DNA of 36,498 bases from an archaeon (lineage in GTDB: Archaea; Iainarchaeota; Iainarchaeia; Iainarchaeales; Iainarchaeaceae), in NCBI GenBank assembly GCA_024653905.1, contig JANLGZ010000036.1:1-36498 (forward strand), written 5' to 3'. Positions 5,432-6,610 of the stretch are shown one piece after another. Numbering within the stretch: the stretch's first letter is position 1; each line of letters begins with the position of its first letter. The notes under the pieces were generated by a model. It did not search any database and had not been told where the DNA came from. It saw only the letters and a program-made list of their open reading frames with translations. A program made the translations under genes and the position numbers.

Positions 5432-5494
5432 AGATGAACACCCAAGCCGAAAAACTTATAGTGTTATTATAGAATAGTCCGAAAATTAAATTTT
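5432..5494. repeat. Repeat A, copy 1 (63 bp, identical to 6032-6094)
   Basis: agatgaacacccaagccgaaaaacttatagtgttattatagaatagtccgaaaattaaatttt. Confidence 0.98.
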
Positions 5495-5505
5495 CTGAAA
5501 CTTAA

Positions 5506-5751
5506 TCAGTAAACGTGTCCCCTGTCATCAATCCATGCGAATTTTATGGTCTTACCGATTATCAAGTAAATAATTCTGAGTTTTTCAATTCTCTCACTTT
5601 TATAATTTTGGAGCGGAGCATGAAGTGGTTTTCCAAGCAAAGGGTTTTCAATGATTTTCAATAATTTCTTGTCAACAAGTTCCTGCTGATGACCATCCAG
5701 CTTCTTGTACTCTTTCTTGAAACGGTCGGAACGAAAATAAACGTAACCCAT
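5506..5751 (-). CDS. RelE/StbE-family toxin
   Basis: F.KEYKKL...NPLLGKPL....RI..LRIIY...DRGHVY pattern. Confidence 0.88.
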   Translation of the reverse strand: MGYVYFRSDRFKKEYKKLDGHQQELVDKKLLKIIENPLLGKPLHAPLQNYKSERIEKLRIIYLIIGKTIKFAWIDDRGHVY

Positions 5752-5957
5752 TATTTTTTCAGCTCTGCAAGGAATTCATCAACAGAAGAAAAAGCCTTCC
5801 CCTTATTGCTTTCGGTATCATTAATTGCCACCCAAAACTCAGGGTTGGAGTACATTCGCAAATCATCCATATATTCCTGCAAATCACCCCTTATTTTAGC
5901 CGCTTCTTTAGTCAATTCCTTGATAGCCTTTTTTTGAATCAAAGTAGTGGAAGTCAA
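5751..5957 (-). CDS. Putative RelB-like antitoxin
   Basis: TTG start after aggtga SD; acidic C-terminus GKAFSSVDEFLAELKK; TAATG overlap with the toxin. Confidence 0.72.
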   Translation of the reverse strand: MTSTTLIQKKAIKELTKEAAKIRGDLQEYMDDLRMYSNPEFWVAINDTESNKGKAFSSVDEFLAELKK

Positions 5958-5963
5958 ACAAAT

Positions 5964-6011
5964 CACCTAACAATATACTGATTTGCAAAGAATTTATTCC
6001 TTTTGGTCAAC
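5964..6011 (-). repeat. Repeat B, copy 1 (48 bp; probable promoter and SD of the TA operon)
   Basis: 45/48 identical to 6563-6610; on the minus strand reads gttgaccaaaaggaataaattctttgcaa...ttaggtg. Confidence 0.95.
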
Positions 6012-6031
6012 TCCTTTAGAACCGTTAATTG

Positions 6032-6094
6032 AGATGAACACCCAAGCCGAAAAACTTATAGTGTTATTATAGAATAGTCCGAAAATTAAATTTT
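6032..6094. repeat. Repeat A, copy 2
   Basis: Identical to 5432-5494, exactly 600 bp downstream. Confidence 0.98.
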
Positions 6095-6112
6095 TTTGAA
6101 ACCAATAATCCA

Positions 6113-6334
6113 TTAAAGCAATTTAATGAATTCTATTCTTGATAATCCAAAATCTTGTTTGATAATCTTATTTAATAATCCTGGCGGAATCGGTGTTGAA
6201 TGAACTGCGATTGTAAGAACTCTGCCATCTTTGTGCTTAAATGTTTTATGAGCCCCTTTTTGCCTCACTTCTACAAATTCAAGTTTAATTGCTATTTTAA
6301 CCAAATCCTTACCGCTAACCACGGGAAGCTTCAT
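6113..6334 (-). CDS. hicA: HicA-family toxin
   Basis: MKLPVVSGKDLVK...VRQKGAH.TFKH.DGR...VH...G.L..I pattern. Confidence 0.92.
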   Translation of the reverse strand: MKLPVVSGKDLVKIAIKLEFVEVRQKGAHKTFKHKDGRVLTIAVHSTPIPPGLLNKIIKQDFGLSRIEFIKLL

Positions 6335-6555
6335 ACTACAACCTTAACCATGCCTATAACAGAACTCGAATCAACTTTGATTTTCTCACTTTTCAAAACA
6401 CTTAAATGCAATTCAATAGCCTCTTTAATTCCCTTCATTAAAGCCTCAATGGAGCCTGCATACGAATAACAACCCGCCAAAGCAGGCACAGAAGCATAAA
6501 ACTGGCCAGATTCATTATCCTTCTCAATAACAACATCAAATTCCTTAACCTTCAC
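6331..6555 (-). CDS. hicB: HicB-family antitoxin, short form without C-terminal DNA-binding domain
   Basis: GTG start after aggtgg SD; VVIEKD...FYASVPAL.GCYS...IKEAIELHL; ATGA overlap with hicA. Confidence 0.92.
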   Translation of the reverse strand: MKVKEFDVVIEKDNESGQFYASVPALAGCYSYAGSIEALMKGIKEAIELHLSVLKSEKIKVDSSSVIGMVKVVV

Positions 6556-6562
6556 AAAAAAC

Positions 6563-6610
6563 CACCTAATAATATACTTACTTGCAAAGAATTTATTCCT
6601 TTTGGTCAAC
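6563..6610 (-). repeat. Repeat B, copy 2
   Basis: 45/48 identical to 5964-6011; the last 29 bp are identical. Confidence 0.95.

Follow-up and report, generated by a model that had tools for sequence, protein, structure and literature searches.

Small gene cassettes bordered by copies of the scpA 3′ end in a family of Iainarchaeum-related archaea

The 36,498-nucleotide (nt) stretch of DNA analysed here (the window; contig JANLGZ010000036.1 of assembly GCA_024653905.1, from an archaeon of the Iainarchaeaceae whose genome is designated G000 below) carries, between an archaeosortase-like gene and a secD-like gene, an array of three small gene cassettes, two of which hold toxin-antitoxin (TA) operons. 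The cassette borders are copies of a short core, termed M, that comes from the 3′ end of scpA, which encodes the kleisin of the SMC complex; the scpA 3′ end is the primary site of such cassettes, and the array in the window is ectopic and partly decayed. Comparison across the family makes it probable that cassettes of this kind enter scpA by conservative site-specific integration, carried out by a recombinase acting in trans.

The array between the archaeosortase and secD genes

A reading of the window from its sequence alone (the sequence-only reading) had described two unrelated TA operons set between shared flanks, A on the left and B on the right, and this layout is confirmed. Repeat A (5432–5494 and 6032–6094) is identical at 63/63 positions (blastn E 1e-30), repeat B (5957–6011 and 6556–6610) matches at 50/55 positions and at 45/48 in its core, a gap of 20 base pairs (bp; 6012–6031) separates B1 from A2, and the first base of A1 follows directly on the stop codon of the plus-strand open reading frame (ORF) at 4943–5431. 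A and B are indeed standard ends, but the border core is M, and the count of two units fell short: the window contains four M copies in one orientation, which therefore bound three cassettes, from 5432 to about 7058, the third of which (~6626–7058) holds just an 85-amino-acid (aa) hydrophobic ORF on the plus strand, and BLAST across the 116 contigs of G000 located one further A...B unit, on contig C45. The earlier lengths of 580 and 579 bp for the units are likewise correct as they were defined, but they reflect no standard, since the M-to-M lengths of seven A/B-type cassettes spread from 560 to 600 (600 and 592 in the window, 589 on C45, 560 and 595 in G014, 592 at locus L135 and 575 at L138); near-equal length is a by-product of small TA cargo. 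The features of the locus are as follows.

4943–5431, plus strand: archaeosortase/exosortase-like gene, left border of the insert; PF09721 (Exosortase_EpsH), 36.7 bits, above the cut-off of 25.7
5432–5505, plus strand: A1, conserved cassette arm to the right of M; 63/63 with A2; immediately 3′ of the toxin stop when read on the coding (minus) strand
5434–5451, plus strand: M1, degenerate core ATGAACACCCAAGCCGAA; differs from the canonical core by substitutions and one added base; tail frame broken (FGLGVH...)
5506–5751, minus strand: RelE/ParE-like toxin of cassette 1; ParE-like_toxin, 4.3e-5, 23.8 bits, below the cut-off of 28
5751–5957, minus strand: antitoxin-like partner of cassette 1; no Pfam match; 51% aa identity to the partners in G014 and G005
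5957–6011, plus strand: B1, conserved arm upstream of the cargo; Shine-Dalgarno sequence, AT-rich promoter-like stretch and stop codon of the replacement ScpA tail
6012–6031, plus strand: 20-bp spacer, type 1, also found in G014; in canonical copies it contributes coding sequence to the replacement ScpA tail
6032–6112, plus strand: A2
6034–6051, plus strand: M2, degenerate core identical to M1
6113–6334, minus strand: HicA toxin of cassette 2; PF07927, 1.7e-14, 54.1 bits, above the cut-off of 27
6331–6555, minus strand: HicB-like antitoxin of cassette 2; PF15919, 9e-9, 36 bits, above the cut-off of 27
6556–6610, plus strand: B2
6611–6642, plus strand: spacer type 2 and M3 (AATGAAGAC-TCGCCGAA); one base shorter than canonical; tail frame broken
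6751–7008, plus strand: small hydrophobic ORF of 85 aa, oppositely oriented and probably the cargo of cassette 3; no Pfam match
7014–7058, minus strand: orphan ScpA tail and canonical M4 (M4 at 7039–7055); the minus strand reads FGEIFISTMDSKKK*; 94% identity over 35 nt to a tail and M of G002
7056–7093, minus strand: decayed scpA-body fragment (pseudo-attB right arm), common to G005; adjoins the secD stop
7094–8746, minus strand: secD-like gene, right border of the insert; named from reading and synteny, not from Pfam

Because the TA cargo genes of the window are encoded on the minus strand, each operon has B upstream of it in the coding direction and A downstream of its toxin stop. Read in this direction, B contains GGTGA or GGTGG, with the start codon, TTG or GTG, following within a few bases. 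Judged from this context, the antitoxin of cassette 1 likely starts at the TTG at 5957, after GGTGA, the GTG at 5966 given in the ORF list falling within that Shine-Dalgarno sequence, and the HicB-like protein probably starts at the GTG at 6555, after GGTGG, the listed 96-aa ORF (6331–6621) starting at a TTG in the spacer and reading through B. The two operons are unrelated to one another. Of the gene identities assigned in the sequence-only reading, those of HicA and HicB are supported above the family cut-offs, and the two genes overlap by 4 nt in the type II HicAB layout; the relE assignment is weaker, the toxin scoring below cut-off for ParE-like_toxin and also for ParE_toxin (20 bits, cut-off 23) and its partner matching no family, whilst the two-gene layout fits a RelE/ParE type II TA system and the toxin shares 51% aa identity with a cassette toxin of G014. 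For the 85-aa ORF of cassette 3 no homologue was found in G000 or in the fetched loci. Across all arrays the cargo ranges over RelE-like, HicAB, MazF and PIN proteins, an AAA ATPase and small membrane proteins.

The core M and the arrays at scpA

Every unit border is a ~20-nt core M, ATGAAnAyyTCGCCGAArAA, which is a copy of the scpA 3′ coding end and whose coding strand encodes ...FGE(I/V)F(I/L). On C45 the copy at 3204 sits within a 296-aa gene that matches SMC_ScpA (PF02616, 49.5 bits, cut-off 24.6). The M pattern has 35 matches in 23 family genomes against 3 for a reversed-pattern control, and the copies inside each array all share one orientation, i.e. they are direct repeats. When the flanks were translated by script, 16/19 M copies proved to be followed by a short in-frame ScpA-like tail and a stop codon, so that the target gene is restored by sequence of the element; the exceptions are M1, M2 and M3 of the window (5434–5451, 6034–6051 and ~6626–6642), in each of which a one-base insertion or deletion breaks the tail frame. 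The live scpA of C45 ends in FGEIFIATVKSDEKP*, the tails FGEVFISLAKRTDQK* and FGEVFISINGSEKRDQK* (the latter at the G014 copy M6280) run through the spacer and end in B, and tails at the far ends of arrays read FGEIFLSLN...*. After the M at 2540 on C45 the tail frame runs for 64 aa into a Cys-rich, zinc-ribbon-like ORF (2353–2547, minus strand; FGEVFISLAKPIDK...; no Pfam match), which could be a real gene starting in the core or a long tail.

On C45, M occurs at 1043, 1632, 2540 and 3204, the last in scpA, and delimits a three-unit array directly adjoining that gene. The RelE-type cassette of this array (1185–1355 and 1352–1561, both minus strand) has an apparently frameshifted toxin, 56 aa long before it diverges from its 80-aa G014 homologue, and an intact antitoxin that is 83% identical to that of G014. 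Amongst the family contigs that hold the scpA 3′ end, 6/11 carry at least one extra downstream M in the same orientation (three in G000, six in G014 and one each in G005, G007, G016 and G022), and the remaining 5/11 (contig C124 of G002, and G006, G010, G011 and G012) present empty sites with no extra M. Direct repeats of the core with one copy inside the target gene are found both on C45 and in the single-cell genome G007, where a PIN/AbrB-type pair lies between 18-nt direct repeats at scpA and the second repeat is followed by an old tail. The largest array, in G014 (another genus), extends over ~5.6 kb from the M in scpA (at 1984) to the M farthest from it (at 7593) and comprises six units, the cargo of which includes a RelE/YoeB-like pair, a PemK/MazF pair, HicAB, small membrane proteins and other small ORFs. 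Units of ~2 kb in G022 and G016 hold an AAA_14/DUF4143 ATPase; a 147-aa fragment of an rve_3/rve integrase core lies just downstream of scpA (locus L132, contig C87 of G016, 1180–1623, minus strand), within the ~2.2-kb M-bounded unit of that ATPase.

Of 80 scpA loci across DPANN and other archaea, just two, those of G005 and G007, have a second convincing downstream M; both belong to the Iainarchaeum-related family, to which the system therefore looks confined. In metagenomes, 13 stretches from nine contigs carry the A core and the same M/A/B arrays, and 4/13 are linked to scpA. This recurrence of A and B on C45, in other genera and on metagenome contigs, with differing cargo, bears out the hedged proposal of the sequence-only reading that the array belongs to an undescribed archaeal gene-cassette or module-exchange system, and counters the possibility it had set against that proposal, namely that the repeats are restricted to one site with fixed cargo. 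Pairs of M were also seen on contigs without scpA, at 3526 and 5298 on contig C16 of G022 (L125), where the scpA-linked unit on contig C44 of the same genome has a matching right flank, and at 410 and 1092 on contig C45 of G003 (L119); these may be further ectopic or fragmentary arrays.

In every A/B-type cassette the plus-strand order is M-A-cargo-B-spacer-M, and B, spacer, M and A would therefore be contiguous, over ~140 nt, in a circularised cassette. This block is conserved in G014, at 84–88% identity in BLAST matches, and can be read from its sequence as an attP-like module with M as the core, the spacer and B as the left arm and A as the right arm. Within A (window 5455–5505 and aligned copies) two blocks are near-invariant across genera, TATTCTATAATAAC.CTATAAG and CAAAAAATTTA on the coding strand, with a variable ~8 nt between them, and CTATAA occurs twice, 11 nt apart; these may be protein-binding sites. 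Primary sequence is conserved in an A/M alignment of 12 copies from 8 loci. The same 12 sequences have no common fold (−1.29 kcal/mol) and show compensatory change in 0/11 pairs, and Rfam returned nothing near threshold (one miRNA model, E 0.82), so that a reading of the block as an RNA element was rejected. A scan for bacterial-type promoters and terminators, which gave 10 promoter-like sites against 7.6 ± 3.4 in shuffles, is unsuited to archaea and was not used.

Exchange point, probable movement and ectopic sites

The exchange point is the ~20-nt scpA-derived core M, not A or B. This was seen when 75 distinct M-like contexts, a set that includes distant scpA genes and some chance matches, were classed by flank: the first 9 nt of M follow the left flank, reading A[AG][AG]AA in 11/12 copies with LSLN-type tails and AT[GA]AA in 9/9 copies with the spacer-1, spacer-2, STxDS and IATV tail types, and the right flank (A, scpA body or other sequence) combines freely with either left form. 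Only about 11–17 nt of core are common to scpA and an A/B cassette, and at their outer ends the C45 and L138 arrays have junctions of ancestral tail, M and A, the product expected from attB × attP recombination in TCGCCGAA(R)AA. Comparison between genomes also suggests that the cassettes are mobile. The RelE-type cassettes of C45 and G014, from two genera, share 84.9% identity over 610 nt; between the same two genomes the figure is 74.9% over 665 nt for scpA and 67–69% for carS/archaeosortase and secD.

The archaeosortase–secD (carS–secD) interval, comparison of which across relatives had been envisaged in the sequence-only reading, is empty in six of the eight genomes examined. In G001, of the same genus as G000, the two stop codons abut with 0 nt between them and the stretch equivalent to 5432–7093 is missing; in G002, G003, G004, G010 and G014 the interval measures from 0 to about 50 nt and has no M. 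G005 carries a single RelE-like cassette here, with no A and a diverged B, followed by M and then the same right flank as the window. Its toxin is 49% identical to that of the window and 71% identical to that of G014, whereas the flanking-gene ends of G000 and G005 are 87–88% identical at this site, which argues that the cargo, not orthologous between the two genomes, was not inherited but replaced.

Over the 36 nt that follow M4 on the right, the sequence is closer to the scpA body than shuffles are, in the window, in G005 and in an ectopic array of G002 (fraction of shuffles reaching the score, 0.000–0.006; for the window, 0.004 against the scpA of G000 and 0.000 against that of G005), which is modest evidence given the shortness of the sequence; on this resemblance of the flank beyond the outer M, ectopic arrays appear to end in a pseudo-scpA 3′ end. 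The G002 array, the second ectopic one (L016, contig C22, 1033–1900), consists of M and A, a two-gene cargo homologous to G014 2433–3058, and a ScpA-type tail and M fused to the 3′ end of an NAD synthase gene (PF02540, 214 bits). The nadE gene of G000, compared with this secondary site, is of a different type (33% identity). The last codons of the G002 NAD synthase gene resemble the scpA sequence upstream of M.

Proposed integration at scpA and its alternatives

We consider it probable that the cassettes integrate conservatively and site-specifically at scpA through a recombinase supplied in trans. In the proposed scheme the natural attachment site of the small recombinase-less cassettes would be the 3′ end of scpA, and a presumed circular cassette would carry one ~140-nt B-spacer-M-A junction; recombination of its M with the identical core in scpA (TCGCCGAA(R)AA, coding ...FGE...) would then insert the cassette with M on both sides. 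The spacer and B would give scpA a new short in-frame tail and stop codon, B would also supply the Shine-Dalgarno and start context of the cargo together with its putative promoter, and A, then located behind the cargo, could terminate transcription at its oligo-T runs. Repeated insertion would build head-to-tail arrays in which older scpA tails are pushed outward. The three cassettes of the window would represent an ectopic copy that came to lie between the archaeosortase gene and secD, bringing with it a pseudo-scpA 3′ end (tail, M4 and about 36 nt of scpA-like sequence), and three of its four cores would have decayed after arrival.

In G000, which is 92.4% complete, a search for tyrosine and serine recombinases yielded one of the former and none of the latter: the only PF00589 match is a 283-aa protein on contig C33 that is clearly a XerA orthologue (best match, the P. 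abyssi XerA structure 4a8e, E 7e-59), and most of the family has XerA. Tyrosine recombinases of a second class, with ORFs of 400–504 aa, 62–79 bits to PF00589 and up to three per genome, occur in G004, G005, G007, G008, G009, G014, G015, G017, G019, G020 and G022 and not in G000. Neither the A core nor the B core had any match among viral contigs (0 each), and the four matches of M there were dismissed as chance, being on unrelated contigs of 44–64% GC with no scpA.

Several observations weigh against site-specific integration in trans. As stated in the sequence-only reading for the window, no recombinase gene lies in or beside its array, and the same applies to the arrays of C45, G014, G016 and G022, the rve_3 fragment of G016 being the sole related sequence; G000 has no match to Resolvase (serine recombinase), Y1_Tnp, the TnpB zinc ribbon, rve or Cas1, which leaves the XerA orthologue as its only recombinase, and 0 convincing M copies were found near the ~400–450-aa integrases of relatives (12 loci). 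Most tyrosine recombinases need dyad symmetry at their site, and M and the junction show none above chance in nine junctions. Three of the four cores in the window are broken, so that this array may be immobile, the scheme does not account for the arrival of the ectopic copy at its site, and the empty archaeosortase–secD sites contain no M-like sequence. Neither a circular form nor an excision product was seen in the sequencing runs, of which just two, from one study, hold 5–6% of the sampled words, as contigs, with most of the stretch uncovered; one low-depth contig from another metagenome speaks for exchange, in that the B end and spacer of the hicAB cassette run on it across M into A instead of cassette 3, but it is equally explained by a different array order as by a circle.

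Host homologous recombination could alone spread and swap the cassettes, through the ~140-nt junction or the scpA-tail repeats and with no dedicated recombinase. That none was found and that dyad symmetry is lacking fit this account, as does a repeat length which varies from 18 nt in G007 through about 50 nt at ~80% similarity in G022 to about 140 nt between A/B cassettes; moreover, the identity of A1 and A2 (with M1 and M2), at 63/63 while the B copies differ, resembles gene conversion and suggests a recent conversion or duplication in a decaying array. We nevertheless judge it unlikely. At the first entry of an A/B cassette into scpA there would have been just the 11–17 nt in common with the target, which favours a site-specific reaction over general homologous recombination, the core TCGCCGAA is invariant in non-coding copies whose surroundings have diverged, and the frame-preserving scpA tail carried by the cassettes would be left without explanation.

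Toxin-antitoxin pairs resist loss, and the units might accordingly be remnants of plasmids or viruses that integrated at scpA by an integrase of their own, later deleted, the addictive pair beside the att site having survived. Archaeal integrated elements do offer parallels, in the form of an attB within a tRNA or protein-coding gene, tandem integration, integrase loss after integration and integrase-less examples (PMC8371274), whilst those elements are kilobases long and plasmid- or virus-like, and scpA is not among the targets named there. The ~400–450-aa integrases of relatives, and the units of about 2 kb with an AAA_14/DUF4143 ATPase and, in G016, the rve_3 fragment, also speak for remnants. 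An origin of this kind is improbable all the same: in seven A/B-type cases of 560–600 bp unrelated cargo is framed on either side by one compact architecture, a uniformity that random deletion would not produce, the same cassette is found in different arrays and neighbourhoods, and no integrase-bearing intermediate at scpA was found among the 80 scpA loci or in the arrays.

The pdif modules of Acinetobacter plasmids, and the stacking of integrative mobile elements exploiting Xer (IMEX) at dif, involve small modules, often with TA cargo, that use the host recombinase. The scpA cassettes resemble them in size, in their often TA cargo, in their short recombination sites, in having no recombinase of their own and in tandem stacking, and host XerA could be imagined to recombine them at a dif-like site, XerA being the sole recombinase found in G000. 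The resemblance does not extend to the sites, which lie within coding sequence, lack a dif-like 11-6-11 dyad and recur in each array as direct repeats, not as the inverted pairs that flank pdif modules; in a scan of nine junctions for 11-nt inverted arms with a 4–10-nt spacer, none exceeded chance, the best scores being reached by 13–93% of shuffles. Dependence on Xer in this form thus seems decidedly improbable, notwithstanding that the XerA of P. abyssi needs no partner for recombination and binds unrelated att sites as well, with lower affinity (PMC2958812, PMC8371274).

It is very improbable that the array is an artefact in which strain alleles were concatenated in a metagenome-assembled genome. 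The assembly is fragmented, into 116 contigs, and the repeat is short; but the sequences following B1 and B2 differ, as do those preceding A1 and A2, G005, assembled independently, carries an insert at this very site and shares the right flank, and the junction recurs in head-to-tail arrays of G014, of a single-cell genome and of several metagenome contigs. A classical integron, or a cluster of attC sites lacking an integron-integrase (CALIN), can be dismissed almost outright, because, for all that the two share head-to-tail arrays of at least two small one- or two-gene cassettes with variable, TA-rich cargo (three units each in the window and on C45, six in G014), a standard border module and mostly no recombinase in sight, as in most reported archaeal integrons, which are clusters without IntI (PMC9668308), the junction (5967–6112) forms no attC hairpin, its single-strand folds at −6.4 and −6.6 kcal/mol being equalled or bettered by 141 and 149 of 200 shuffles (z +0.55 and +0.76 for the two strands), G000 has neither IntI nor an adjacent attI, its sole PF00589 match lying on another contig, and the scpA cassettes have their own Shine-Dalgarno and start context, a border core of scpA coding sequence and the capacity to restore the tail of their target. 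The main text of that survey makes no mention of Iainarchaeota, which its supplements may list. The analogies with integrons and pdif modules drawn in the sequence-only reading therefore fail, for want of an attC hairpin and of an Xer/dif-type dyad respectively.

Since no integrase was found in any unit examined, the M-bounded units are non-autonomous, in the manner of cis-mobilisable elements (CIMEs). The CIMEs beside ICESt1 and ICESt3 at fda in Streptococcus thermophilus are reportedly integrase-less and att-flanked and accrete in tandem at the 3′ end of a housekeeping gene. With such elements the scpA cassettes would share direct att repeats, a protein-gene 3′ end restored by the element, tandem accretion and a recombinase provided in trans, and accretion of this type appears, by analogy, to be their mechanistically closest match; they differ in being far smaller (0.4–0.7 kb, some about 2 kb), in their standardised ~140-nt junction, in having no known autonomous partner, and in target and domain of life. 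The TA cassettes of Vibrio superintegrons are comparable in that TA pairs with their own expression signals sit in an array that they plausibly stabilise, but those are attC cassettes moved by IntI.

What is new here is the scpA target, the miniature standardised cassettes with a ~140-nt junction that rewrites the tail of the target, the lineage, and the ectopic arrays with a pseudo-attB. A literature search, the scope of which did not extend to supplements, found no paper linking scpA to an archaeal attachment site or integrase, and a gene-capture site targeting scpA in these tiny archaea seems to be undescribed. Going further, the mini-cassettes might form a third prokaryotic gene-cassette platform beside integrons and pdif modules, with expression signals of their own and a linear ~140-bp attachment module, able to rewrite the scpA tail and to seed arrays elsewhere through a pseudo-scpA end, and moved by a host enzyme that would be either an as yet unrecognised kind of recombinase or XerA, working at a site that is neither dif nor palindromic; this is a possibility that we take seriously and yet hold to be doubtful.

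DPANN archaea have tiny genomes, and little is known of how they gain and exchange accessory genes. If integration at scpA proceeds as proposed, a hotspot at this gene would gather TA and other small genes in units with standard ends, a concrete and testable route of gene flow, and the natural attB/attP pairs would give a means of finding the recombinase and might serve as an archaeal integration tool. The idea of the cassette array would be widened beyond attC and IntI, and an essential gene of chromosome organisation would be seen to tolerate repeated insertions and to be repaired after them.

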